Position numbers and translations under genes: made by a program. A stretch of DNA of 64,000 bases from Vulcanimicrobiota bacterium. GTDB lineage: Bacteria > Vulcanimicrobiota > Vulcanimicrobiia > Vulcanimicrobiales > Vulcanimicrobiaceae. The notes beneath the pieces are model-generated. The model saw only the letters and a program-made list of their open reading frames with translations, ran no database searches and was not told the DNA's origin. Below are positions 26,626 through 57,760 of this stretch, in pieces. The stretch's first letter is position 1. Every line of letters starts with the position of its first letter. The DNA is taken from contig CAVWTN010000002.1 of assembly GCA_963757945.1 (NCBI GenBank), forward strand, positions 458,262 through 522,261, given 5' to 3'.

Positions 26626-27495
26626 TCAGCTTCGCCGCAGCGCGAGCGCGAGCAACGACGGCGTCGTCCCGATCTTGCCGAACTCCCACAGGTCGATCGC
26701 GTCGACGGCGACCTTCGCGGCGCGCAGCAGCGGGGGGACCGCGCGGAAACGGAGGTTCCCGATCACGCGCCCGCGCCCGAGCGCGAGCACGCCGGCGCCG
26801 TAATCGTCGCCGCGCGGCACTTCGATCGCCGTCAACCCGGCAAACGCGGCGCCCTGCACGAGCCCGGGCGAATACAGGATCGCTTCCTCATCGACGAAGG
26901 CGGCGACGGCCCGCAAGCGCACGGCATCCGCGGCTACGCCGACCTCGACGATGCGCCGCCCGATCCCGCGCGCGTACGCGGCGAGCTGCTCGCGCCCATG
27001 GGCGTTGCCGCGCCGCCCCGTCGGGATTCCCCCGGCCGATGGCCGTGCTTCACTGACACCGAGGTACAGCGCTTCCGGGCCGAGCAGCACGTCGCCGCCG
27101 TCGAGCAATCCGGGCGCTTCGATCCGGCCGACGATCGGCACGCCCGCCGTCGCCAGCGCCGCTTCGACGGCCGCGAGTTCGGTTCGCCGGGCTACGTCGC
27201 TGGGCCGCATCAAGAACGCGCCGCCCGGGAAGACGACCGCGAGATCCGCGACCGCGCTCGCATTCGGCAAGCCGGGCGTTTGGTCGATCGCGATCGTTTG
27301 GACGCCGTTGTAGTGCAGCGTGCCTTCGAAGATCGCGAATTGCTCGAGCGCGCGCGCGAAGATCGTCCCCGATTCGCCCTGAACGGGCTTCGCCCGTTCG
27401 ATCGCAGCCGACGGCCGCACGAGCAGCGCCGCCGCCAAGCGTGCGCCGTCATCTTCGACAAAGGGGCCCTTGATCTCGTTCGCTATGCTGACCAC
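26626..27495 (-). CDS. amidinotransferase-superfamily protein (dimethylarginine dimethylaminohydrolase-like)
   Basis: DDAH/arginine-deiminase-fold similarity across the length. The usual C-terminal catalytic Cys appears to be replaced (…GKIGTTPSLL), so it may be non-catalytic. Confidence 0.5.
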   Translation of the reverse strand: MVSIANEIKGPFVEDDGARLAAALLVRPSAAIERAKPVQGESGTIFARALEQFAIFEGTLHYNGVQTIAIDQTPGLPNASAVADLAVVFPGGAFLMRPSDVARRTELAAVEAALATAGVPIVGRIEAPGLLDGGDVLLGPEALYLGVSEARPSAGGIPTGRRGNAHGREQLAAYARGIGRRIVEVGVAADAVRLRAVAAFVDEEAILYSPGLVQGAAFAGLTAIEVPRGDDYGAGVLALGRGRVIGNLRFRAVPPLLRAAKVAVDAIDLWEFGKIGTTPSLLALALRRS

Positions 27496-27550
27496 CCTCA
27501 GTAGTTAACGAGAACCCCCCTCGCGCCCCCTCGCCCCGTGCGCGACTCGT

Positions 27551-27952
27551 TCAGCCTGAGCTTGCCGAAGGGGTCGAAGGGTCTGCACCGATGTCGAGGG
27601 TGATTCGGCCGCTTCCGTTGCAGGTGCAGCAGGCGAGGCCGCTGCCGGTGGCGCGAGCGATTCCGGAGCCTCGGCAGTTCGGGCAGGCTTGGGTTCGCTT
27701 CGGCACGCTGTGAACGCCGCGTCCGCCGCAGGCGCTGCAGGTCAAGCGCTTTTGCGGCTGCACGGCGGTCCCGCGGCACTCACCGCAGCGCACGAATGGT
27801 GCGCGCACGAGAATCATGCCCTCGCCGTGGCAGATCTCGCAGCGCGAGAGCGGGGAAAGGACCCCGAATGGATCCTTTCCCGTCCCGCGGCAGAACGCGC
27901 ACGCGACCTCATGGTACGCGGAGTTCGGGGTCCGGTTAGGCTGGATTGCCAC
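27551..27952 (-). CDS. DnaJ-type zinc-finger protein (six CxxCxGxG motifs), gas-vesicle-cluster associated, paralog 1
   Basis: 133 aa with repeated CxxC(x)GxG motifs ([48 protein letters not shown]). Paralog of 29608..29985. Confidence 0.6.
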   Translation of the reverse strand: MAIQPNRTPNSAYHEVACAFCRGTGKDPFGVLSPLSRCEICHGEGMILVRAPFVRCGECRGTAVQPQKRLTCSACGGRGVHSVPKRTQACPNCRGSGIARATGSGLACCTCNGSGRITLDIGADPSTPSASSG

Positions 27953-27964
27953 GCACGACCTCCA

Positions 27965-28636
27965 CTACGCGAGTCGAACTTGTTGCGTTGCGCTATCCGC
28001 CACGAGGTAGGTCAGCTTCTCCAACTTCTCGACTTGGTCGAAGAGCGAGAGAGCCTCGTGGTAATGCCCCTCGTTTTCGAAGACGTGCCCGAGTTCAAGG
28101 AGCCGATCGAACGCCTCGCGCCCCTCGATGCTGCCGGGATAGCGCCGCAGGAGCCGCGTGTATCCGTCGATCGCGGTGTGGATCAGCCCTTGTTCGTCCC
28201 AGGCTTGCGCTGCGCGAAGCAAGGCCACTCGGCCCGATGCCGCCGCGGCCAACTTCTGCAACGTGTGCAGGAACGAGGAATGACGTTCCGCCAGCGCCGT
28301 GCGAATTTCATCGTCCGACGCATAGACGCTGAAGGTCCCCGCGGGGAGCAACGTAAGGCGCCGCTGTAACGCGTCGACGACCCGGCCGTGATCGAACGTT
28401 ATCCGCCCGAGCCACGCGTCATCCTGGGCCAGCGTGCGCACGCGCTCCTGCGAAAATTCGTCGAGCGGAACGGCGCTGACGAGTGCGGCCAACTCGCCAT
28501 ACTCGATCGCGGTGAGCGGCGCCGATCCGTTGACGCCGAACGTGTCATCGGGCAGGCGGCTCTGGGCATCGGTCTGCTTCGCGATCCCGTAAAGGTACCA
28601 CCCGTGGTCCGGGGGCAAGCGGTGTTTCGTCATCAC
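27965..28636 (-). CDS. GvpL/GvpF-family N-terminal domain fused to a TPR-like C-terminal region
   Basis: N-terminal ~135 aa aligns with the gvpL at 31578..32423 (GHAWYLYGIAK…YGELAALVSAVPLDEF…FSVYASDD). The C-terminus diverges into TPR-like helices (AWDEQGLIHTAIDGYTRLLRRYPGS…GHYHEALSLFDQV). Confidence 0.65.
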   Translation of the reverse strand: MMTKHRLPPDHGWYLYGIAKQTDAQSRLPDDTFGVNGSAPLTAIEYGELAALVSAVPLDEFSQERVRTLAQDDAWLGRITFDHGRVVDALQRRLTLLPAGTFSVYASDDEIRTALAERHSSFLHTLQKLAAAASGRVALLRAAQAWDEQGLIHTAIDGYTRLLRRYPGSIEGREAFDRLLELGHVFENEGHYHEALSLFDQVEKLEKLTYLVADSATQQVRLA

Positions 28637-29031
28637 CGGCTCCCTCCGCGTGCGACGCCGGCTCGCCTGCGCGTGTAGCTGCTCCAGATGCGCGCCGTCT
28701 CGCTGCGTCGGCCGTGGAGGCCGCCGAGCAGACCGCGAACCTGCGCCCGGTTCTGTGCCGTTTCTGCCTCGAGCAGCGTTCGCTGGCGCTGTGCCGTTGC
28801 CGCAAGCTCGCGGCCGAAACCCGCGAGCAGCGTGGCGACCGCCCGGCTACGGACGGTCACGTCCTCTCTGAGCGCCTCTCGCAGCGAGGCATCCTCGCGC
28901 AGGCGCTCGCGCCCCAGCAGCTCGAGCTTTTGCGCGATCGCCGCCCGTCTGGCTGCAATCTCTAGCGAGCGTTCATCGTGCGCCTGCTCCAACCGATCGG
29001 TCAGCGCGCGCACGTCCGCGACTATTGCCAT
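28633..29031 (-). CDS. predicted coiled-coil gas-vesicle-associated protein ('GvpX' paralog 1, family not recognised)
   Basis: 132 aa, helical and Arg/Glu/Ala-rich. The first ~100 aa are paralogous to 37420..38013 (MAIVADVRALTDRLEQ…). ATG at 29031; the ORF's upstream extension is junk. Immediately downstream of gvpA1. Confidence 0.5.
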   Translation of the reverse strand: MAIVADVRALTDRLEQAHDERSLEIAARRAAIAQKLELLGRERLREDASLREALREDVTVRSRAVATLLAGFGRELAATAQRQRTLLEAETAQNRAQVRGLLGGLHGRRSETARIWSSYTRRRAGVARGGSR

Positions 29032-29168
29032 GTCGATCTCCCGAATCATTGAAGAAAAACAGTGCGAGGGGGCGCCGGCGTCTTTGCCGCCGATCGCTAC
29101 GCACGACCGGCATGCAAGCCCCGGCGCCCTTCGCTCGAGCTCGATCGACGAGCTCTTTGCCGCTCGTG

Positions 29169-29399
29169 CTATGCGGCGGCCGCCTGCGGTGCGGCGACGG
29201 ATGCCGTGAGCCCGATCGCTTCGGCATACTTGAGGTAGGTTTCGACCGACGCGACGACGGCGCGGATTTCGATCGCGAGCAATTCGATGCCGACCAGCGA
29301 CACGCGCACCCATGCGTCGATGACGAGGCCCTTGTCCAAGATGCGATCGACGACTTCCACGAGGCTCGACGAGCCGATTGCCTTCTCTACTTGTGCCAT
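29169..29399 (-). CDS. gvpA: gas vesicle structural protein GvpA (copy 1)
   Basis: 76 aa: [64 protein letters not shown]… is the canonical GvpA core. Confidence 0.92.
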
Positions 29400-29494
29400 T
29401 CTCAGCCAAGCTCCCTGTGACGAATAGCGGCCTTGACGCATTGCCGAAGCCGCTGGTTGGGGTCCCATCGCCATCCTATCCGGCGCTCGAGAAC

Positions 29495-29543
29495 TCAACA
29501 ACACTCGATCGAGGTACTGCGGACTATCCGGACGGATACAAAT
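29495..29543 (-). promoter_or_regulatory. conserved upstream element of gvpA copy 1 (CTCGATCGAG palindrome + TATCCG-N2-CGGATA inverted repeat)
   Basis: About 48 bp nearly identical to 38510..38558 upstream of gvpA copy 2, while the flanking intergenic DNA diverges. Confidence 0.5.
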
Positions 29544-29607
29544 CCGTGCGCCCTTCGAACCACGCGGGGCGCACGCCGCAGCGCGGGATCGCGCCTGGCT
29601 GGCGGCG

Positions 29608-29985
29608 TTACGAAGCCGAACCGCTATGCAACGTCACTCTGCCGCTGCCGGTACAGGTGGAACACGACAGATCGATCTCGCTTTCCGGATCGACGCCCGT
29701 ACCTTTGCAAACCGGGCACGCTTGGTTGTTCTTCGAGACGCTCTGCACGCCGCGCCCTCCGCACGCACTGCACGTCAGACGCTTGTGCGGCTGCGCGCCG
29801 GTACCATGGCATTCGCCGCAGCGCACGAACGGCACGTGCACGATGTTCTTGCCGACGCCCTGGCACGTCTCGCAGCGCGAAAGGTCGGAAAGGAGCCCGA
29901 ACGGATCCTTACCCGTACCGCTACAGAATGCGCATTCGACGGCCTGTTCGCCTGGTTTCGGAACTGGATTAGGCATTGGCTCCAA
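29608..29985 (-). CDS. DnaJ-type zinc-finger protein (CxxCxGxG repeats), paralog 2
   Basis: 125 aa ([48 protein letters not shown]). About 50% identical to 27551..27952. Overlaps the gvpJ stop. Confidence 0.6.
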
Positions 29986-30280
29986 TCGCCTCCTCTACGC
30001 GTGCGAGTCTTTCTTTGAGTAAAAGGTTATCGGCCTCGAGACTTTCGGCGCGCGAAACCAGCGCCGAGTCGCGCTCCCACCAGTTGATCCCCATCTCTTT
30101 CGCCTTGTCCACCGATGCGATCAACAAGCGCACCTTGATGCTCAACAACTCCACCTGAACGAGGGAGATGGTGATGTCCCCGGCGATGACGATGCCCTTG
30201 TCGAGCACGCGCTCGAGGATGTCGGCCAAGTTCGTGGTCTGGATTGCACTGGCGACGCGCCGGTCGCTTGCGTTCTGCAT
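29969..30280 (-). CDS. gvpJ: gas vesicle protein GvpJ (GvpA-family)
   Basis: NLADILERVLDKGIVIAGDITISLVQVELLSIKVRLLIASVDKAKEMGI. RBS GGGAGAAGG upstream. Confidence 0.8.
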   Translation of the reverse strand: MQNASDRRVASAIQTTNLADILERVLDKGIVIAGDITISLVQVELLSIKVRLLIASVDKAKEMGINWWERDSALVSRAESLEADNLLLKERLARVEEAIGANA

Positions 30281-30303
30281 GTTCCCTTACCTTCTCCCTG
30301 TTA

Positions 30304-30633
30304 TCACAGGAGATTGCCCAGCGGTCCCAAGTTGAGATTCAAATCCTCGCCTTCCAGACCGAACCGTTCTTTGAGCTCGATCATCGCTTGCTCGAGGTTC
30401 ATGAACGTCTCGCCCATCCGCTCGACCTCGTCCGCCGTCACGCTCTCCGCTTCGATGCGCTTGATGGCCTGACGCTCGAGCAACTGGCGCAACAACTCGA
30501 TGATCGTGAGCACGAGCTTTGCCAGCCCTTGCTCCACGCGCTCCGGGTCGATATCGAGCCGATCCTCCGCGGCCCGCGCCGCGGACGACGGCGCGATCGT
30601 GTCGGGGAGATCGGTCGCATCATTCACGTTCAT
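30304..30633 (-). CDS. gvpK: gas vesicle protein GvpK
   Basis: 109 aa. EQGLAKLVLTIIELLRQLLERQAIKRIE…LNLNLGPLGNLL is the GvpK signature. Confidence 0.85.
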   Translation of the reverse strand: MNVNDATDLPDTIAPSSAARAAEDRLDIDPERVEQGLAKLVLTIIELLRQLLERQAIKRIEAESVTADEVERMGETFMNLEQAMIELKERFGLEGEDLNLNLGPLGNLL

Positions 30634-31409
30634 CGCTGTACCCTCGCCGCTATGCGGGCTCGCGAACGGTCCTCCGCCACGAAGCTGTACGGCGCGGACG
30701 GGCCGCTCAGCACCAGATCGAGTTCCGGGCGCTCGCTGCACAGGCTCGCAAACGCCCTGCGGAATCCCGGCACCGCGGCCGGATCCACGAGATACGCGGC
30801 GCTGCAGGCGATGCGCTCGCTCGCCAGCTCGGACCAACGCACTTCGCGCGCGTGGGGAGAGAGGCGCTCGTCGATGCCGTCCCGCGCCGCGCGGAGGCGC
30901 TCTTCGAGAATCTGCGCCTTCAAATGCACGCGCATCAGCCCGCGCAAGTAACGAGCGCCCGCACCGGAACCGCGAATGTTCGGCCCTGCAGGCAAAGCTG
31001 CCGCCGGCGCGCTTGCGCCGTCCCGCAGAACGGAAGACGTGGTCAGGATCGCCAGATCCAACTCCGCCATGGGGCCCAAGCGCGCCAAGTCCTCGTGCAA
31101 CTGCTCGCGCTGCCGTGCGAGCGTTTCGACGACGGCCGTCTCGCCGCGCAGTACCGTGCCGAACCGGGCAGGAAGCGCGGAGTTCCGCTGGCGTACCGCC
31201 TCGACGACGGCTTGGTGAGCGAAGAGATGCTTGGCCGTATGCTCCCAACGTTCCTGACTCACCGCGCCGGTGACGGCCGCAAGGCCTGCGCCGCGGACCA
31301 AAGCCAACGCCTCACCCTCCACGCCGCGCACGCCGGGCGCCAGCTCGGCCTGCGGCGGAACGATCGCGTAGACGTACAGGTATCGTTCGCTACGGTCGAG
31401 CGTTTCCAC
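30630..31409 (-). CDS. gvpF: gas vesicle protein GvpF/GvpL family
   Basis: N-terminal YLYVYAIV… and GvpF-family architecture. GTG start; ATGA-type overlap with gvpK. Confidence 0.75.
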   Translation of the reverse strand: METLDRSERYLYVYAIVPPQAELAPGVRGVEGEALALVRGAGLAAVTGAVSQERWEHTAKHLFAHQAVVEAVRQRNSALPARFGTVLRGETAVVETLARQREQLHEDLARLGPMAELDLAILTTSSVLRDGASAPAAALPAGPNIRGSGAGARYLRGLMRVHLKAQILEERLRAARDGIDERLSPHAREVRWSELASERIACSAAYLVDPAAVPGFRRAFASLCSERPELDLVLSGPSAPYSFVAEDRSRARIAARVQR

Positions 31410-31581
31410 GGTATTGCGGCTCCCCTACGCACAGCGCAATCACGAGTTGCAGGTCGAGGAAGAGCAGGTCGACGCCGGCGACCGAGATCGTCAGATTCCC
31501 CGCCAGCACGAGGCCCCGATCGAGGACCCGGTCGAGCAGATCGAGGAGGGTGACCTCGTCCGGCTCTGCAACGGCGCTCAT
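31390..31581 (-). CDS. gvpS: small GvpA-family gas vesicle protein (GvpS/GvpM-like)
   Basis: 63 aa. TLLDLLDRVLDRGLVLAGNLTISVAGVDLLFLDLQLVIA is a GvpA-fold core. Confidence 0.7.
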   Translation of the reverse strand: MSAVAEPDEVTLLDLLDRVLDRGLVLAGNLTISVAGVDLLFLDLQLVIALCVGEPQYRGNARP

Positions 31582-32423
31582 CGGTGCACGCTCCCTTGCT
31601 CTTCGATGGATTCAGGATCGACGAAATTGTACGGCGGCCACGGCCCGCTATATTCGACCTTGATCTCCGGGCGCAGTTGACCGATGCGCTCCACCATCTC
31701 CAAGAACGCACCTTGCTGCGCGCGCCGGACCAAGAATGTCCGGCGCAGGATCGCGAGCGTCGCTTCGCCGTCCGTGAGGCGCAGGGGCGAGAGCTCCCCG
31801 CCGGCGACCGCGAGCGAACGCAGTTCCGCGTACGCCTGGTCGCTCACGCCTGCGATCGTGTCTTCGACGTGACGCTTCAAGAGGGTCGCGATTTGGCGAT
31901 CCACGAGATAGGCGCGGCCGGCACTCGACGACGCCCGCTTCTCCAGCAACTGCGCGATCTGGGGGACGGAGCGGGAAAGGCTCTTGCGCAGGAGCGTCCG
32001 ATCGAACGTCAGCCGCACCTCGAACTCGTCGCAGCCCTCCAACCGTTGCAGGATGCGTAAGATCGAGGACTGACTTTCCGCAAGCGCCGCAAGAATGTCG
32101 TCATCGCTCGCATAGACGCTGAACAACCGCGCGGGCACGATGCCCAGGCGCTGCTGCAGCCCTTCGACGACCCGTTCGTGCTCGGAGGCGACCTGCCCGA
32201 GCCACGTATCGTCTTGCGCGAGCGAGCGCACGCGCTCCGCTTCGAAATCGGCAAGCGGAACGGCGCTCACGAGTGCGCTTAACTCCCCATAACTGATCGC
32301 GCCGACGAGCGTCGCGCCGTCCACGCCGAGGATCGCGAGCGGCAGCCGGCTGCGAACATCGCTCTCCTTCGCGATTCCGTACAGATACCACGCATGCCCG
32401 GGCGGCAATACTCGATCGATCAT
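31578..32423 (-). CDS. gvpL: gas vesicle protein GvpL/GvpF family
   Basis: 282 aa, WYLYGIAKE…GELSALVSAVPL. Start at ATG 32423, which overlaps the gvpG stop by 1 nt. Confidence 0.8.
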   Translation of the reverse strand: MIDRVLPPGHAWYLYGIAKESDVRSRLPLAILGVDGATLVGAISYGELSALVSAVPLADFEAERVRSLAQDDTWLGQVASEHERVVEGLQQRLGIVPARLFSVYASDDDILAALAESQSSILRILQRLEGCDEFEVRLTFDRTLLRKSLSRSVPQIAQLLEKRASSSAGRAYLVDRQIATLLKRHVEDTIAGVSDQAYAELRSLAVAGGELSPLRLTDGEATLAILRRTFLVRRAQQGAFLEMVERIGQLRPEIKVEYSGPWPPYNFVDPESIEEQGSVHR

Positions 32424-32671
32424 CAGAGCGACGCCTTGTATTCGCGAATCTCGTTCAAGCGCTGCAAGATGCTCGCTTCCGCCTCGCTGTACTCCGCTTC
32501 CGAGATCTCGCCCAAATCGAGTTGCAAGCTCAGCCGCATCAGCGCGCTCTCGAGGCGGCCTTCGTCGTACATCTCCGCGTCGACCGCCTCTTTGATCTTC
32601 TCGAACACAAAGAGCAGCCCGCGGGCCGGTCCCGCAACCGGCAGACACACGAGATCGGTGACCAATCCCAT
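32423..32671 (-). CDS. gvpG: gas vesicle protein GvpG
   Basis: 83 aa. MGLVTDLVCLPVAGPARGLLFVFEKIKEAVDAEMYDE…LDLGEISEAEYSEAEASIL is GvpG-like. RBS AAGGAGAG. Confidence 0.7.
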   Translation of the reverse strand: MGLVTDLVCLPVAGPARGLLFVFEKIKEAVDAEMYDEGRLESALMRLSLQLDLGEISEAEYSEAEASILQRLNEIREYKASL

Positions 32672-32673
32672 CG

Positions 32674-33477
32674 CTAGCTCTCCTTTTCCCAGGCGAGATC
32701 GACGAAATCGAACGGCGGCAGAGGCCCGACGTACTTCAGAATCAGCCGTTCGGCATTCCGCTCGGCGATCGCGTTGACGGCCGCGTCGAAGCGCGCTTCG
32801 CTTGCTTTCTCCACGAGAAACGCCGCGTTGACGATCATCATGTCCGTGAGCAGGGCGTTCGTCTTCATCTCCACGCACAGCGGTGCAAGCTCGCTCTCGA
32901 TCTCCTCGGCGTCGCGCGTGCGCAGCAGGGCCATGGCCTGCTCCACCAATTGCCCGAGCCGGATCTGCTCGAAGTGGCCCGACCCCGATACCATCTCGTC
33001 ACGCAACGAGCGGATGTCGTCCCGCGCGGCCACGATCTCGGCGAACACGCGCTCCCGTTTCCAAAGCACCTTGAGCCCGAGCTCGACTCGCCCGCGGACA
33101 TGCGCCAAGATCGCGAGCAGCTCGTCGCGCCGCGCTTCAAGAACCTGCTCGCCGACACGCGCGTCGCTCGCGGAGATCAATCCGAATTGCGCGGGGATCA
33201 CCTCGCTGAACGTGAGGATCTCTTCGAGAACGCGCTGATGCGTCAGGAGGTTCTCGCGGCTAACGTCGTAGCGAGCTGCCGGAGAGTCGCTGACGATCGC
33301 CGCGAGCTCGCCGGCCCGGACGGCGCGCACCGCGTCGCCGCGCCCGCCGACCGCGGCCGCGGCGAACGCACCGCGCCCTTCGAGCGCGGCTGCGGGAACG
33401 ATGCCGTAGACATAAACGCCGGCCGCGCCCGCGGACGTTCCCGCCTCGCTCGCGGCGAGCTTCTCGTCACTCACCAT
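32674..33477 (-). CDS. gvpF: gas vesicle protein GvpF
   Basis: 267 aa. GVYVYGIVPAAA…LAAIVSDSP… is GvpF-family. Start at ATG 33477. Confidence 0.8.
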   Translation of the reverse strand: MVSDEKLAASEAGTSAGAAGVYVYGIVPAAALEGRGAFAAAAVGGRGDAVRAVRAGELAAIVSDSPAARYDVSRENLLTHQRVLEEILTFSEVIPAQFGLISASDARVGEQVLEARRDELLAILAHVRGRVELGLKVLWKRERVFAEIVAARDDIRSLRDEMVSGSGHFEQIRLGQLVEQAMALLRTRDAEEIESELAPLCVEMKTNALLTDMMIVNAAFLVEKASEARFDAAVNAIAERNAERLILKYVGPLPPFDFVDLAWEKES

Positions 33478-35659
33478 GGGCCGCCTCTTCCGCCTGGAGG
33501 GCCGCGACGTGCGCTTCGCGCGCCTGCACGAACGCGTTCTCGAAGTGACGCCGCTCGATGACGAACGGCGTGAACGCCGCCTGGGGTTCGCGCTCGATCG
33601 ATTCGCGGATCGCGAGCATCGCCGCACGCCGGCAAAGCCCCTCGAGATCCGCGCCGACGAGGCCCTCGGTGCTCGCTGCGATGCTCTTGAGGTCCACGTC
33701 TGCACTCAACTGCCGGCCGCGCGTGTGCACGCCGAGGATCGACAGGCGCGCAGCCCGGTCCGGGGCGTGCAACGGGAGAATCACGTCGAAGCGCCCGGCG
33801 CGCAACAGCGCGGGATCGATCATGTCCGGGCGATTGGTCGCGCCGAGAATGACGACGCCGCGCAATTCCTCGATGCCGTCGAGTTCGGCGAGGAACTGCC
33901 CCACGACACGTTCCGCAACGTGCCCCCCGCCGCTCCCGTCGCCGCGGCGCGGCACGAGCGCGTCGATCTCGTCGAAGAAGACCATGCACGGCGCGGCTTG
34001 CCTGGCCTTGTGGAAGACTTCGCGGATGCCTTTCTCCGACTCGCCGACCCACTTCGAGATCAGCGCGGGCCCCTTGACCGAGATGAAATTGATGCCGCTC
34101 TCCGCCGCGGCCGCCCTCGCCACGAGCGTCTTTCCCGTTCCCGGCGGCCCGGTCAGGAGCAACCCTTTCGGTGGATTCACCTTGGCAAACGCAAAGCGGT
34201 CGGCATACGCGAGCGGCCAGGCGACCATCTCACGAATGACTTCCTTCACCTCGTCGAGCCCGCCGACGTCGTCCCACTTCACGTCCGGCAGTTCGGTGAA
34301 GACCTCGCGAATGGCCGAGGGCTCCGTCTCCGTGAGCGCATCCGTGAAGTTCCGCATCGAGATTTCGAGCTTGAGCAGCTCCTCGTAGGGAAGCTGCGGG
34401 TTCTTGAAATCGATCGTCGGGAGAGCGTTTCGCAAGCAGCTCATCGCGGCTTCGCGGCACACCCCGGCGAGATCGGCGCCGACGAAGCCATGCGTGATCG
34501 CCGCCAGCTTCTCGAGGTCCACATCCTTCGCGAGCGGCATGCCGCGCGTGTGAATCTGCAAGATCTCCAGACGCCCCACCTTGTCGGGGACGAGGACCGA
34601 GATTTCGCGATCGAAGCGCCCCGGCCGGCGCAGCGCCGGGTCGATGCTATCCGGAATGTTCGTCGCGCCGATGACGACGACGTGCCCGCGGGACTCGAGG
34701 CCGTCCATCAGGGTCAGGAGCTGCGCGACCACGCGCTTCTCGACTTCCCCTTGGACCGCTTCGCGCTTGGGCGCGATCGCGTCGATCTCGTCGATGAAGA
34801 CGATGCTCGGCGCGTGGTTCTGCGCCTCATCGAAGAGCTTGCGCAGATTTGCTTCCGACTCGCCGTAGAACTTGTGGATGATCTCCGGACCGTTGACGTG
34901 CACGAAGTGCGCGGAGGTTTCGGCTGCGACCGCTCGCGCGATCAGCGTCTTGCCGCACCCGGGCGGCCCGTAGAGCAAAACTCCCTTGGGCGGCTCGATG
35001 CCCAGACGCGCGAAGACCTCCGGGTAGCGCATCGGCAACTCGATCATCTCGCGAATCCGCGCGATCTCTCTCCCCAGGCCACCCACGTCCTCGTAGGACA
35101 CTCCCGGCGCGCGGCCTCCCAGGGTGGCATCTCCGGCGATGCGCACGACGGTGGCTCGATCGACGTAGACGGGACCGGACGGGCTCGTGTCCTTGACGAT
35201 GAAATCGACCGCCCGCGAACCGAACAGCGCGACGCGCACGCGATCGCCCACCACGAGCGGCACGTTCTCGAGCAGCGTGCCGATGTAGCGCGAATCTTGC
35301 GCGCCGAGCGCCTTGGCGGTGACGACCGGCGTGAGCGCGAGACTCGCCGCGCTGTGGTTGCCCGCCTTCTTGAGTTGCACGCTATCGTCGAGCGCCGCCT
35401 GCGCGTTCTCCCGGATGATCCCGTCGATCTGGACCAGACCCTTGCCGCGCTCGCCGGGGAACGCCGGCATGATCCGCGCCGTGGTGTTGCGTTTGCCTGC
35501 GATCTCCACGATGTCGCCGATCGCGCAACCGAGACGCTCGATATCCGCCGGATCGACGCGCGCGATCGCCCGGCCGACGTCTTTCGGAAGCGCCTCCGCA
35601 ACGCGCAGCGCGAGCGCCGCCCGCTCGCCTACCGCGCCGCTTGCTCCGGGTTGACTCAT
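33467..35659 (-). CDS. CDC48/VAT-like double-ring AAA+ ATPase (N-domain + D1 + D2) embedded in the gvp operon
   Basis: 730 aa. CDC48-type N-domain, two Walker A sites (GPPGCGKT, GPPGTGKT), two Walker B sites (IVFIDEID, MVFFDEID), and a second-region-of-homology with Arg fingers. Confidence 0.85.
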   Translation of the reverse strand: MSQPGASGAVGERAALALRVAEALPKDVGRAIARVDPADIERLGCAIGDIVEIAGKRNTTARIMPAFPGERGKGLVQIDGIIRENAQAALDDSVQLKKAGNHSAASLALTPVVTAKALGAQDSRYIGTLLENVPLVVGDRVRVALFGSRAVDFIVKDTSPSGPVYVDRATVVRIAGDATLGGRAPGVSYEDVGGLGREIARIREMIELPMRYPEVFARLGIEPPKGVLLYGPPGCGKTLIARAVAAETSAHFVHVNGPEIIHKFYGESEANLRKLFDEAQNHAPSIVFIDEIDAIAPKREAVQGEVEKRVVAQLLTLMDGLESRGHVVVIGATNIPDSIDPALRRPGRFDREISVLVPDKVGRLEILQIHTRGMPLAKDVDLEKLAAITHGFVGADLAGVCREAAMSCLRNALPTIDFKNPQLPYEELLKLEISMRNFTDALTETEPSAIREVFTELPDVKWDDVGGLDEVKEVIREMVAWPLAYADRFAFAKVNPPKGLLLTGPPGTGKTLVARAAAAESGINFISVKGPALISKWVGESEKGIREVFHKARQAAPCMVFFDEIDALVPRRGDGSGGGHVAERVVGQFLAELDGIEELRGVVILGATNRPDMIDPALLRAGRFDVILPLHAPDRAARLSILGVHTRGRQLSADVDLKSIAASTEGLVGADLEGLCRRAAMLAIRESIEREPQAAFTPFVIERRHFENAFVQAREAHVAALQAEEAAHGE

Positions 35660-36156
35660 TTCTTCTTCTCGAGGCGAACCTCGAGAATGGCATTCTTAAA
35701 GCTTCGCTGCAGGTTCGACGCATCGACCTGCGCCGGCAACAGGAGTTCCTTGGAGTATTTCCGTTCGCGACCGGCGGCCTCGAGCGTCAGGATGTCGCCC
35801 TCAACTTCGACCTTGATGTCTTCGTCCGTGACGCCCGGCAGCTCCGCCACGACCAAGACATGATCGGCTTCGTCGAAAATGTCGACGAGCGGCTCGCGCA
35901 CCTCGGAAACTTCGGGCCCGTGTGCCGTGGGGCGGATGTTGCCGAACTGCTCGATGACCGGAACGCCGCCGAGCGACTTGATCGACACGCCGTAGAGGCC
36001 GCGCAATTCACGCGGACCGCTCAGCTCGCCGCTGCGCCGGATTTCCTTGCCCTCGCCGAGCTCACCGAGCAGATCGATGAAACCGCCCAGCCCTTTGAGG
36101 ATCTCGCCGAGCCCGAGATCCGTGCGCGGATCGCTTGTCTTCCGTTTGCTGCTCAT
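35656..36156 (-). CDS. gvpH: Hsp20/alpha-crystallin family protein (GvpH-like)
   Basis: 166 aa with an alpha-crystallin domain (ADHVLVVAELPGVTDEDIKVEVEGDILTLEAAG). ATGA overlap with the CDC48-like gene. Confidence 0.75.
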   Translation of the reverse strand: MSSKRKTSDPRTDLGLGEILKGLGGFIDLLGELGEGKEIRRSGELSGPRELRGLYGVSIKSLGGVPVIEQFGNIRPTAHGPEVSEVREPLVDIFDEADHVLVVAELPGVTDEDIKVEVEGDILTLEAAGRERKYSKELLLPAQVDASNLQRSFKNAILEVRLEKKK

Positions 36157-36159
36157 CTT

Positions 36160-36459
36160 CTAGTACTCCAACGTCAGCGCATGGCGGTCACTCGCGGCAG
36201 GCGGGGCTTCGATGCCGCCGGCGATCGGGCGCGCGATCGGCCGTGATTCGAGGTCGGCGATCTGCCCGTCGACCTCGCGCAAACGCGCCTCGACGGTTTG
36301 CTGTCTTTTCCGCGCGAGCTCGACTTCGCGCACGAGCCGCCGGCGTTCGCCCGCCAGCCGCTGGAGTTGCAATGCACGGCTCACTTCGCTGCGCAACCCG
36401 ATCGACGGGGGCAGCCCGCGAAACGACCGCACGTCGTGCATGGTGCTAGGTTGCCCCAT
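36160..36459 (-). CDS. small predicted coiled-coil protein in the gvp operon (unknown)
   Basis: 99-aa ORF tightly packed between gvpN (2-nt gap) and the Hsp20 gene, with RBS GGAG. Helical Arg/Glu-rich composition. It could be spurious in this high-GC DNA. Confidence 0.4.
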   Translation of the reverse strand: MGQPSTMHDVRSFRGLPPSIGLRSEVSRALQLQRLAGERRRLVREVELARKRQQTVEARLREVDGQIADLESRPIARPIAGGIEAPPAASDRHALTLEY

Positions 36460-36461
36460 GG

Positions 36462-37391
36462 TTACTTCCGCCTTTTCGGACTGCCGGTTTCCCGGATGCG
36501 CCGCCGCGACTTTTCAGATCGATCGGAGCCGCCGCTGACGAGCACATCAGCGCACGTCTGCTCGAACGCCGGCTCTCCGGGAACCGCGCGTCCACCGGAG
36601 ATCGACAAGACCTTGGCGATCATGATGGAGCGGCGCAGCGTGGACCCTACGTGGCCGGACTCATCCCTCCAGTGATGCACGACGTCGACGATCCGTTCGG
36701 CATCCTCGAGGGGAACGCCGGACTTCGCTCGAGTGATCTCGATCTCCGTATCGCGATCGAAGCCGCTCATGTCGATCGTGATCATCCGGTCGAGCAGTGC
36801 ATCCTGCGCGCCGTGCACGCCCACGTACTCGTCGGGATTCGACGTGAAGATCGCGGAGAACGCGGGGTGAACCTTCAGATACTGCACGCCGTTCCTGCTC
36901 GTGGGCAACATGAGCAGCTTCTCTTCCAACACGGCGAGCAGGACGTTGTTCGCCTCCGCGCGCGAGCGCGAGAACTCGTCGTAAAGCAGCGTCAGCCCTT
37001 CGCGGCAGGCGACCGTCAAACGATTGTCGACCCACTGTTGCGTCACGTCCTCCTCGGTCTTGAGGACCGAGTGGACGAAGTTGTCGACGACCCTGCGGCG
37101 GCGATAGCCGGATCGCCCGCCGACAAGGTCCGATGTGCCGAACTCGTCGTCACCGCACAGCAACGCCAGCGGCCGGCCCAGGTGATGCGCGACGTGCAGC
37201 GCCAAGGTCGTTTTGCCCGAGCCGGACGGTCCGCGGAAATGCACCGGATAGCCGGCCCGGATATACGTGAGGGCCCGTGCGGTCAGGGCCCGGATGAAGT
37301 CGGTCTCAACGAAATCCGCGCGTGGCCGGCTCGTGATGACCGAACTCCCTCCGACCGCAGGCGCGCTACCGTTCAACGTGACGCTCGCCAA
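36462..37391 (-). CDS. gvpN: gas vesicle protein GvpN (MoxR-like AAA+ ATPase)
   Basis: Walker A HFRGPSGSGKTTLA, Walker B LLYDEFSR. TTG start at 37391 preceded by AGGAGG at 5-nt spacing. Confidence 0.85.
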   Translation of the reverse strand: MASVTLNGSAPAVGGSSVITSRPRADFVETDFIRALTARALTYIRAGYPVHFRGPSGSGKTTLALHVAHHLGRPLALLCGDDEFGTSDLVGGRSGYRRRRVVDNFVHSVLKTEEDVTQQWVDNRLTVACREGLTLLYDEFSRSRAEANNVLLAVLEEKLLMLPTSRNGVQYLKVHPAFSAIFTSNPDEYVGVHGAQDALLDRMITIDMSGFDRDTEIEITRAKSGVPLEDAERIVDVVHHWRDESGHVGSTLRRSIMIAKVLSISGGRAVPGEPAFEQTCADVLVSGGSDRSEKSRRRIRETGSPKRRK

Positions 37392-38151: not shown

Positions 38152-38382
38152 CTACGCGGCGACGGGCTGGGGTGCTGCGACCGATGCCGTAAGCCCGATC
38201 GCTTCGGCATACTTGAGATACGTCTCGACCGAGGCCACGACGGCGCGGATCTCGATAGCGAGCAACTCGATGCCGACGAGCGACACGCGCACCCATGCAT
38301 CGATGACAAGGCCCTTGTCCAGGATACGATCGACGACTTCCACGAGGCTCGATGAGCCGATTGCCTTCTCTACTTGTGCCAT
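38152..38382 (-). CDS. gvpA: gas vesicle structural protein GvpA (copy 2)
   Basis: 76 aa. Identical to copy 1 except for 2 C-terminal residues (…APQPVAA vs …APQAAAA); DNA about 88% identical, mostly synonymous changes. Confidence 0.92.
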
Positions 38383-38478
38383 TATTTAACGAAGCTCCCT
38401 GTGACAAATGGCGGCCAAGACACACTGCCGAGGCCACTGCTTGGGATTCGAGAAACCATGAACATCAGGTTTCCCTCC

Positions 38479-38564: not shown

Positions 38565-39221
38565 TCACTCCACCATTCCGACGCGCATCGCGAGGACCGC
38601 GACGTGCGTGCGATCGCGCGCGGCGAATTTTCCGATGATGCTCTGAACGTGCTTCTTGACGGTCACTTCAGCAAGACCGAGCTCGTCGCCGATGGCGCGA
38701 TTCGTCTTTCCGTCGACCAAAAGATCGAGCACCATTCGCTCGCGCTCGGTGAGATCGATCCCGGCCTTCTTCGCGGCGTTCGCCGGCGCCAGCGCCTCGT
38801 CCGCAAGCGCGCGCCGGATGACCGCATCTCTCACGACGATGTTGCCTTGACTGACTGCGGTGACGGTATGATACAAGAGATCGCGCGAGCAATCTTTGAG
38901 CAAATAGCCTGCCGCCCCGGCACACACCGCGCTCGTCACGAACGCATCGTCGCCGTAGCTGCTCATCATGATGACGGCGGTATCCCCGAAGGCTTCCTTG
39001 ATGCGACGCGCCGCATCCAAGCCGCCCATGCCCGGCATGCGCACGTCCATCAACACGACGTTCGGCCGCAGCCGTTCCACGCTCGCGATCGCGCTCTTTC
39101 CATCCTCCGCCTCGCCGACGACCTCGATCGCAGGATACGTCTCGAGCATGGCCCGCACGCCCTCGCGAACGACGAGATGGTCATCGACCAGCAGGACGGA
39201 GATGCGCGGCGTTGCGCTCAT
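38565..39221 (-). CDS. LuxR/NarL-family response regulator (REC + HTH)
   Basis: 219 aa. Receiver domain LLVDDH…VVLMDVRMPGMGG; C-terminal LuxR HTH (LTERERMVLDLLVDGKTNRAIGDELGLAEVTVKKH). Start at ATG 39221. Confidence 0.85.
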   Translation of the reverse strand: MSATPRISVLLVDDHLVVREGVRAMLETYPAIEVVGEAEDGKSAIASVERLRPNVVLMDVRMPGMGGLDAARRIKEAFGDTAVIMMSSYGDDAFVTSAVCAGAAGYLLKDCSRDLLYHTVTAVSQGNIVVRDAVIRRALADEALAPANAAKKAGIDLTERERMVLDLLVDGKTNRAIGDELGLAEVTVKKHVQSIIGKFAARDRTHVAVLAMRVGMVE

Positions 39222-39988
39222 CGCAAATGCTCCCGGGATTCGCTCGCCACGAACGAAGGCGCGCCGAGCGCGAGCGACGCCGGGACGATCACGGTCGTCG
39301 CGGTGCCCTTGCCTGGGGCGCTTTCCACGGTCAACGTGCCGTCGAGGAGTTCCGCACGCTTGGTCATGCTCAGCACGCCGAAATGCCGCGGTGCACGCTC
39401 TCCGATCAGCGTGGCGACATCGAAACCGGCGCCGTCGTCGAGCACGGTCCATTGGATCGTATCGCCTACGCGACGGAGCGTGGCCACGATCCGCGATGCA
39501 TTTGCATGTTTGACGACGTTTGTAATCGCCTCGTGAACGATGCGATAGAGCGCCGTCTCCACTTCCTTGGGAAAGTGCAGCGGAGCGAGTTCGTAATGAA
39601 CCGCCAGACCGTGGCTCTCGCGCAGCTCGTCCAGTTCGTGCTGGATTGTCGACACGAGCCCGACGTCGTCGAGCGCCGCCGGCCGCAGGCAGGCGACGAC
39701 CTCTCTGGCCTCCTGAAGTGCCTTGCGAACGCAACTCCCGGCACGATTCACGCTCGCCCGAACGTCGTCCGGCAAATTCGATCGTGCAACCACGACTTGA
39801 AGCTGCTGGAAGGCCGCGGTCAGCGTTTGCGTGAGACCATCGTGGATGTCCAAGCAAATTCGCTCGCGCTCCCGTTCCTGCGCCTCAAGCGTCTTCTGCA
39901 ACAGATAACGAACGCGTTGCTCCTGCTCTTGCAAAGCAGTGCGCAAGCCTGCGTCGTCGGCCTTCCTCTGCGCACTTATCTCAGACAT
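39218..39988 (-). CDS. sensor histidine kinase, HisKA_3 + HATPase_c, no TM or recognisable sensor domain
   Basis: 256 aa. H-box LDIHDGLTQTL about 45 aa from the N-terminus; ATPase motifs (ITNVVKHANA, DDGAGF, GLLSM). 4-bp overlap with the RR gene. Confidence 0.8.
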   Translation of the reverse strand: MSEISAQRKADDAGLRTALQEQEQRVRYLLQKTLEAQERERERICLDIHDGLTQTLTAAFQQLQVVVARSNLPDDVRASVNRAGSCVRKALQEAREVVACLRPAALDDVGLVSTIQHELDELRESHGLAVHYELAPLHFPKEVETALYRIVHEAITNVVKHANASRIVATLRRVGDTIQWTVLDDGAGFDVATLIGERAPRHFGVLSMTKRAELLDGTLTVESAPGKGTATTVIVPASLALGAPSFVASESREHLR

Positions 39989-57499: not shown

Positions 57500-57586
57500 G
57501 TGGTGCGCGAGACTGGACTCGAACCAGCACGCCCTTGCGGGCGCTAGCCCCTCAAGCTAGTGCGTCTACCAATTCCGCCACTCGCG
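57500..57586 (-). tRNA. tRNA-Leu (anticodon GAG), CCA encoded
   Basis: Minus-strand sequence GCGCGAGTGGCGGAATTGGTAGACGCACTAGCTTGAGGGGCTAGCGCCCGCAAGGGCGTGCTGGTTCGAGTCCAGTCTCGCGCACCA folds as a class-II tRNA with a long variable arm and anticodon loop TTGAGGG. Confidence 0.85.
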
Positions 57587-57760
57587 CACGGGGGCCCAAA
57601 GCTTGGGCGCGGGAAAGCGCCAAAGCGATTAACCCGCGTATGGTATCGTATCGGCCGACGCCGTGCAAGACACGCCGCGGGGTATCCCGCACGGGGCAGC
57701 TATCCCCGGCGACGGGCGTGATTGACAGGCTGCGGCGGGGGGTGGTACCGTCGGGAGCGT

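Follow-up and report, generated by a model that had tools for sequence, protein, structure and literature searches.

Several stand-alone DnaJ-like zinc-finger proteins that lack a J-domain, including BSD2, OR, PSA2 and ZnJ6, are client-specific assembly chaperones; BSD2 binds the large subunits of Rubisco, and OR binds phytoene synthase (PMC4806229, PMC12063368, PMC7865324). Every characterised J-less relative (BSD2, OR, PSA2, and anti-TRAP, which acts on TRAP) works by binding another protein. In gas vesicle (gvp) operons, ArsA homologues and Hsp20 were reported in 2010 by Castillo and Saier, who proposed roles for them in biogenesis and mentioned no zinc-finger or DnaJ-like gene (PMC2963123). 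Here, we describe two zinc-finger genes, ZnF-A and ZnF-B, in a gvp cluster of a Vulcanimicrobiota bacterium; the cluster lies in a 64-kb stretch of DNA, the whole of which is called the window below. Judging from their sequences, both proteins belong to a conserved, widespread and previously unnamed family with six CxxCxGxG motifs, which may take part in gas vesicle assembly.

ZnF-A and ZnF-B are DnaJ-type zinc-finger genes

The two open reading frames (ORFs) singled out by an earlier note on this DNA were both found on the minus strand (Table 1), and, in agreement with that note, neither product matched a J-domain model of Pfam or NCBIfam. Six CxxCxGxG motifs had been claimed for each protein. 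All six are exact in ZnF-B, whereas ZnF-A has five exact motifs and one CxxCxGxA variant, CGECRGTA. A six-frame translation of the window contained 12 exact motifs in total, 11 of which lie in these two proteins. Both proteins scored above the Pfam gathering threshold of PF00684 (DnaJ_CXXCXGXG; 32.7 bits), with 38.1 bits for ZnF-A and 52.3 bits for ZnF-B. They are 60% identical (74/123, ungapped) and not ca. 50% as had been estimated. The start of ZnF-B is likelier ATG 29976, which yields a protein of 122 aa identical to the public protein P0001; within ATGCCTAA, this ATG and the stop codon of the gvpJ-like gene upstream overlap. The start of ZnF-A is GTG 27952, and a GGAGG ends 6 nt upstream of it.

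Comparison with orthologues on the metagenome contigs L004 and L006 demonstrated purifying selection on both genes, with ratios of nonsynonymous to synonymous divergence (dN/dS) of 0.11-0.19 (0.19 for ZnF-A and 0.11-0.12 for ZnF-B). The ZnF-A orthologue in L004/L005 is 87% identical, and the closest relatives of the window zinc finger in the genome scan described below are merely 54-56% identical. ZnF-A and ZnF-B thus have the sequence features of genuine, constrained, expressed-looking genes. Spurious ORFs arising by chance in high-GC DNA were ruled out by the Pfam scores, the dN/dS values and the motif count.

ZnF-A, ZnF-B and their orthologues in L004-L006 formed a single clade. The duplication was therefore specific to that lineage, which modifies the picture given in the earlier note; the two genes are indeed paralogues, as that note had stated. 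The pair is not equivalent to the zinc-finger pairs of other phyla. The synonymous divergence (dS) from the same relative differed approximately threefold between the two genes (0.42 for ZnF-A and 1.24 for ZnF-B; L004:5568-5942 and L004:3414-3770), and the dS between the paralogues (1.08) was below that between ZnF-B and its orthologue. Saturation, gene conversion or separate histories could account for this discrepancy.

A six-motif family homologous to the DnaJ cysteine-rich domain

Family members are ca. 105-160 aa in length and carry the six motifs without a J-domain, a G/F region or C-terminal client-binding domains. Exactly six motifs were present in 131 of 168 family ORFs. The 12 cysteines and the motif glycines were invariant in 22 sequences, and their conservation was still 90% or more when 136 unique sequences were compared. 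A loop following motif 1, GKDPFGxxSxLSxC, is conserved in the family and has no counterpart in DnaJ. Since 12 cysteines are conserved, three Zn(Cys)4 centres are predicted, and zinc binding by ZnF-A and ZnF-B is probable in view of the invariant cysteines. The two genes were also considered as degenerate dnaJ fragments, and this was ruled out because the six-motif architecture and the gvp context are conserved.

Just 21 relatives were returned when 5.8 billion proteins were searched by a word index. A hidden Markov model (HMM) scan of 1.84 billion representative proteins gave 561 clusters at E<=1e-10, part of which may be ordinary DnaJ, and 56 at E<=1e-30, the clusters being defined at 50% identity. 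When each GTDB species was represented by one genome, the scan gave 249 loci. No dedicated model for the six-motif family was found in Pfam or NCBIfam, and none of their Gvp-named models (GvpA/J/M, C, F/L, G, H, K, N, O and others) matched ZnF-A or ZnF-B. Literature searches turned up no paper describing a gvp-linked six-motif zinc-finger family. When 72,556 plasmids were searched with ZnF-B by tblastn, no gvp-linked copy was found; the lone match (E=3e-6), with 35% identity over 62% of the query, was at an unannotated site of a Fusobacterium record of 2.1 Mb.

The family is strongly expanded in certain lineages. Anaerolineae-type clusters hold four to six zinc-finger genes in tandem, and some single polypeptides contain at least two six-motif units, such as one with 16 motifs in 488 aa (loci for these expansions are L038:2523-3986, P0036 and L001/L017/L018/L019/L021/L025). 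An apparent fusion of ArsA with a zinc finger (P0170) was not used; its first motif is missing and it resembles a frameshifted gene call.

The family profile matched the cysteine-rich (CR) domain of Escherichia coli DnaJ (1EXK) with E=1.4e-9 and, more weakly, DNAJA3, Ydj1 and DNAJA2, as well as anti-TRAP. Together with the PF00684 scores, this firmly supports, as far as sequence is concerned, that the family is homologous to the CR domain of DnaJ, and the relationship anticipated by the earlier note was thus confirmed. The structural similarity was only local. In a confident AlphaFold2 model of ZnF-B (pLDDT 87.6, pTM 0.78), short beta-strands flank the motifs. A Foldseek search gave no hit at E<=1e-3, and its top 14 hits, which include DNAJA3, BSD2, anti-TRAP, DNAJA2, DnaJ and EMB2737, were all of the CR type. 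No solved structure corresponds to the three-centre whole. In the model, a strand precedes each odd motif and follows each even motif, a pattern that would fit sequential zinc pairing (1+2, 3+4, 5+6) and DnaJ-like nested pairing alike. An assignment of ZnF-A and ZnF-B as type I DnaJ/Hsp40 was rejected, given that a PF00226 J-domain is absent, that the TIGR02349 scores are 28.7 and 42 bits, respectively, against a cut-off of 377.2, and that the proteins measure just 125-133 aa.

The family is gvp-specific yet optional

To evaluate the genomic context, 79 genome loci selected with the zinc finger were translated in six frames and searched with HMMs built from the Gvp proteins of the window. Because a zinc-finger peptide was the sole pattern used for locus selection, the association described here is not circular. 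In 64 of the 65 loci with a length of 8 kb or more, and in 71 of all 79 loci, at least one of GvpA/J, GvpF/L, GvpG and GvpK was encoded no further than 10 kb from the zinc finger, and the 18 full-length 20-kb loci all contained both a GvpA-family gene and gvpF/L. These results bear out the association with gvp genes elsewhere that had been expected. The loci came from more than 12 bacterial phyla, and their lineages included Actinomycetes, Chloroflexota, Omnitrophota, Planctomycetota, Nitrospirota, Cloacimonadota, Elusimicrobiota, Desulfobacterota, Armatimonadota, KSB1 and Calditrichota. The HMM labels were confirmed by Pfam on an Omnitrophota locus (L065), and metagenome contigs already annotated with Pfam likewise placed the zinc finger in a gvp context. 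The sole locus of at least 8 kb with no detected gvp gene was L036, from a metagenome-assembled genome (MAG) of Streptosporangiaceae; on one side, this locus extends only 2.7 kb beyond the zinc finger, which has a CDC48-like AAA+ gene as one neighbour and a free-standing J-domain gene as the other.

Reciprocally, 80 metagenome loci were fetched by similarity to GvpA alone, 23 of which were at least 10 kb long. Within these 23 loci, a zinc finger was present in 13 (57%) and gvpN in 22. The same gene order occurred with a zinc finger (L156, L114 and L174) and without one (L152, L153 and L122), and, where the zinc finger was missing, the gvp strand carried no further CxxC-rich ORF. Since gvp genes accompany the zinc finger in 64 of 65 loci, and only 13 of 23 GvpA-selected loci carry it, the six-motif family is gvp-specific yet optional.

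A recurrent gene order was gvpA, coiled-coil gene, zinc finger, gvpN, (zinc finger), hsp20, arsA, AAA+, gvpF/L-J and gvpF/L. The downstream neighbour of the 139 zinc-finger genes was most often gvpN (41), followed by another zinc finger (27), gvpA (12) and hsp20 (10); the bracketing of gvpA seen in the window is therefore not a general pattern. ZnF-A occupies the position after gvpA and the coiled-coil gene. ZnF-B stands at the end of the gvpK/gvpJ block, as in MAGs of Actinomycetes and Chloroflexia.

Chaperone-type genes are frequent around the zinc finger. Among the 79 loci, GvpN was found in 58, Hsp20 in 46, a J-domain in 36, an ArsA/Get3-like ATPase in 32 and Hsp70 in 16. The J-domain was fused to the C-terminus of GvpF/L in 36 of 38 J-domain ORFs, and the HPD motif was intact in all 38, which implies recruitment of Hsp70 to gas vesicle assembly. 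Such fusions occur at L001:6215-7303, at L065:13904-14953 and in 34 other loci (L015-L092), and no paper describing a GvpF/L-J fusion was found in literature searches. The chaperone-type genes of the window itself are those for Hsp20, GvpN and a CDC48-like AAA+ ATPase. Besides, several gvp clusters (L001:5154-6185, L065:16236-17297, L017, L021, L046, L063 and L069) encode an actin homologue of the Volactin family (PF25216), which scored 328 bits in L065.

Proposed role and alternative explanations

Based on these results, we consider the chances even that the zinc-finger family is a dedicated, optional gas vesicle assembly chaperone or adaptor, acting as an ATP-independent holdase. It was hypothesised that the role is as described below. 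The three Zn(Cys)4 centres would hold together a thin, extended scaffold consisting mostly of loops and beta-hairpins, and this scaffold would serve as an ATP-independent binding module (holdase or adaptor). It may keep newly made, aggregation-prone shell subunits of the GvpA family and/or their assembly partners soluble, and may then hand them to energy-driven factors, which here would be GvpN and the CDC48-like AAA+ ATPase. Hsp70, via the GvpF/L-J fusions, and ArsA/Get3-like ATPases could be further recipients in other lineages. A holdase or adaptor fits a gene that is almost confined to gvp clusters, usually co-oriented with gvpA and gvpN, optional, and placed among chaperone-type genes, and its optional status in particular fits an auxiliary helper. 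A broader version, in which the zinc finger is one arm of a hitherto unrecognised, dedicated multi-chaperone gas vesicle pathway widespread in uncultivated bacteria, a 'split DnaJ' around GvpF/L-J, is conceivable but unlikely. GvpF/L would there have turned into a client-specific J-protein and the free zinc finger would give the CR function in trans, so that GvpA-family subunits would be fed to Hsp70, Hsp20, ArsA/Get3-like and AAA+ machines.

Several points weigh against the assembly chaperone or adaptor. Both the chaperone activity and the client are putative; the relationship to the CR domain and the gvp association that underlay the earlier idea of a GvpA chaperone held up, and the link to GvpA or another Gvp protein as client is presumptive. 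The commonest neighbour is gvpN and not gvpA, and GvpN could thus be the partner. Zinc-finger and GvpA-family genes did not correlate significantly in copy number (rho 0.23, p 0.36, n=18), and co-transcription with gvpA suits a structural role equally. No J-domain, Hsp70 or ArsA gene was detected in the window by the in-house HMM scan, and a link to Hsp70 could therefore run only via the housekeeping DnaK. Finally, a few family members (L028:8645-9874, L021:17642-18631, L025:11581-12507, L001:15817-16722 and P0038) have a C-terminal winged-helix domain, the matches to wHTH-PRTase_assc, HTH_IclR, CvfB_WH and TrmB-like being mostly weak or sub-threshold, and this domain could hint at a regulatory or tethering role.

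That the zinc finger is instead a structural or surface protein, sitting on the outer shell like GvpC or at the tips or the seam and serving in stiffening or clustering, appears unlikely. The gene usually lies in the gvpA-proximal operon after gvpA and the coiled-coil gene in the GvpC position; at least two copies per cluster are common (39 of the 79 loci); zinc-finger and coiled-coil genes correlate in copy number (rho 0.60, p 0.008, n=18); and both kinds of protein are found fused to a C-terminal winged helix. However, sister clusters of the same architecture lack the zinc-finger gene, the solved homologues are all chaperone or regulator modules, and no repeat pattern fits the GvpA lattice. 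The predominance of gvpN as the downstream neighbour, and the arrangement of gvpN between two zinc fingers in many clusters (including L123-L125, L137 and L141), would suit an adaptor or regulator that recruits substrate to, or modulates, the MoxR-type AAA+ ATPase GvpN. We regard this as fairly improbable, considering that neither copy in the window adjoins gvpN, that Actinomycetes-type and Chloroflexia-type clusters place the gene after gvpK, gvpF/L or gvpJ, and that 9 of the 22 gvpN-positive GvpA-selected loci have no zinc finger.

DnaJ zinc centre II is required for substrate transfer to DnaK. The zinc finger could act as the CR domain in trans of an Hsp70 co-chaperone whose J-domain resides on a client-binding GvpF/L, locking Gvp clients onto Hsp70; the abundance of GvpF/L-J with an HPD motif (36/79 loci) and the presence of Hsp70 (16/79) agree with this. 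The explanation is nevertheless improbable, as J-domain and Hsp70 genes are absent from the gvp clusters of the window, L004 and L006, GvpF/L-J occurs without a zinc finger in L121, L138 and L100, and the presence of a J-domain is uncorrelated with zinc-finger copy number. Very improbable is a regulator of gvp expression, either an anti-TRAP-like sequestering inhibitor or a nucleic-acid-binding factor. The weak matches of ZnF-A and ZnF-B to anti-TRAP point this way, as does the superposition of single zinc modules on it (1.5-2.0 Å over 33-35 columns), and some relatives have winged-helix domains, as noted above. The anti-TRAP scores of ZnF-A and ZnF-B, however, stay below threshold (27.1 and 21.8 bits against 32 for PF15777; 27.9 and 31.1 bits against 65 for NF058604), and an identity as anti-TRAP was rejected. 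Moreover, most members are bare zinc modules that lack a DNA-binding domain, the two to six copies per cluster would be unusual for a regulator, and a two-component system already lies upstream of the cluster. A thiol-disulfide oxidoreductase similar to plant LQY1, CYO1 and ZnJ6 seems extremely improbable. Some CR-type proteins have such an activity (PMC7865324). GvpA1, GvpA2, GvpJ, GvpK and both coiled-coil proteins of the window, however, contain no cysteine, which makes this role unlikely, and ZnF-A and ZnF-B are presumably cytoplasmic, being small zinc modules in which no signal peptide or membrane segment is evident without a prediction run.

Organisation of the gas vesicle cluster

The cluster extends from ca. 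38.4 kb down to 27.55 kb of the window, and every neighbouring gene is on the minus strand (Table 1). The layout described in the earlier note was correct: a gap of 208 bp separates the end of ZnF-B from gvpA1, and the cluster closes with ZnF-A. A scan of 27300-30400 revealed neither a sigma-70-like promoter nor an intrinsic terminator, so the 'gvpA1 promoter' of that note is an assumption.

Table 1. Genes of the gas vesicle cluster in the window, in the order of transcription
Gene or product	Coordinates	Strand	Remarks
gvpA2	38155-38385	minus	first in transcription order; 97% identical to gvpA1
coiled-coil-looking protein, 215 aa	37420-38067	minus	after gvpA2; weak winged helix-turn-helix (wHTH) match
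gvpN	36462-37391	minus	Pfam/NCBIfam and in-house HMM scans
99-aa protein	36160-36459	minus	between gvpN and the Hsp20/GvpH-like gene
Hsp20/GvpH-like	35656-36156	minus	Pfam/NCBIfam and in-house HMM scans
CDC48-family double AAA+ ATPase	33467-35659	minus	908.9 bits to TIGR01243
gvpF/L	32674-33450	minus	Pfam/NCBIfam and in-house HMM scans
gvpG	32423-32671	minus	Pfam/NCBIfam and in-house HMM scans
gvpF/L	31578-32360	minus	Pfam/NCBIfam and in-house HMM scans
small GvpA-family gene	31390-31581	minus	Pfam/NCBIfam and in-house HMM scans
gvpF/L	30630-31409	minus	Pfam/NCBIfam and in-house HMM scans
gvpK	30304-30660	minus	Pfam/NCBIfam and in-house HMM scans
gvpJ-like	29969-30280	minus	directly upstream of ZnF-B
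ZnF-B	29608-29985	minus	125-aa ORF; no J-domain; PF00684 match
gvpA1	29169-29399	minus	major shell protein, 76 aa, no Cys; Pfam Gas_vesicle 61.1 bits
CC130, coiled-coil-looking protein	28633-29031	minus	start ATG 29031; after gvpA1
GvpF/L N-terminal half + TPR repeats	27965-28636	minus	immediately upstream of ZnF-A
ZnF-A	27551-27952	minus	133 aa; no J-domain; last gene of the gvp cluster

In the fusion gene upstream of ZnF-A, the GvpL_GvpF match (69.3 bits) covers residues 12-133, and TPR_6 scored 27.1 bits against a gathering threshold of 26.3; relatives of this protein were found in 11 other loci. The proteins encoded after gvpA1 and gvpA2, whose coiled-coil character was judged by eye, are paralogues with 58% identity. 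CC130 matched no Pfam or NCBIfam family, and a PDB sequence search with the 215-aa protein gave nothing meaningful. In many phyla, relatives of the coiled-coil proteins are encoded after gvpA and before the zinc-finger gene, which is the usual position of gvpC. The C-terminus of the 215-aa protein showed a weak match to a MarR-like winged helix, a domain that may be of a similar kind to the one in some zinc-finger family members.

Genes for a histidine kinase (HisKA_3) and a response regulator (LuxR/GerE) lie directly upstream of gvpA2, at 38565-39988 on the minus strand, and this two-component pair is a candidate regulator of the gvp cluster. Of the 18 full-length loci, 14 encode a homologue of the CDC48-like AAA+ ATPase. 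An Rfam scan of the window gave one tRNA (57504-57587, minus strand) as its sole match.

Comparison with known systems

The means by which the extremely hydrophobic GvpA stays soluble and reaches the growing shell have yet to be explained, and this is also a practical bottleneck for the use of gas vesicles as acoustic reporter genes. Heterologous gas vesicle expression is reported to provoke proteotoxic stress (PMC12848028). An optional, gvp-specific zinc finger related to DnaJ and encoded by a gene of only 0.4 kb would be a concrete and readily testable candidate for an assembly factor, and its companions, namely the GvpF/L-J fusions, Hsp70, Hsp20 and the ArsA-like ATPases, would likewise be candidates. 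If the proposed role is true, the BSD2-type idea that a CR module without a J-domain serves the assembly of a specific client would extend from plastids to bacteria, and a three-zinc architecture would be added to that class. For family members, the generic database label 'DnaJ-class molecular chaperone' is corrected by the present analysis.

Compared with DnaJ, whose CR domain has four motifs and two zinc centres (1EXK; human DNAJA3, 2CTT), the gvp family has six motifs and three predicted centres. The additional motif pair is N-terminal and bears the GKDPFGxxSxLSxC loop. Unlike DnaJ, the family is free-standing, without a J-domain, a G/F region or the C-terminal domains CTD I/II, and it is encoded in gvp clusters, whereas DnaJ is encoded in dnaK-dnaJ operons. 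Anti-TRAP (RtpA) resembles it in being a small bacterial J-less zinc protein of the CR type that acts purely by protein binding, but has one zinc centre and 53 aa, and its tryptophan-regulatory context is unrelated to gvp. ZnF-A and ZnF-B share with BSD2, OR and PSA2 a CR-type zinc module that lacks a J-domain. BSD2, OR, PSA2, LQY1 and ZnJ6 are, however, eukaryotic plastid proteins with four motifs, whereas the gvp family is bacterial, six-motif and gvp-linked; the clients of the BSD2/OR/PSA2 type are Rubisco, phytoene synthase and the photosystems, and no orthology to the gvp family is detectable. By analogy, the gvp family may be viewed as a stand-alone DnaJ-like zinc-finger protein akin to the BSD2 class, with a putative holdase or assembly activity. 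What is new here is a six-motif, gvp-dedicated form of a protein class that was already known, the stand-alone DnaJ-like zinc-finger assembly factors.

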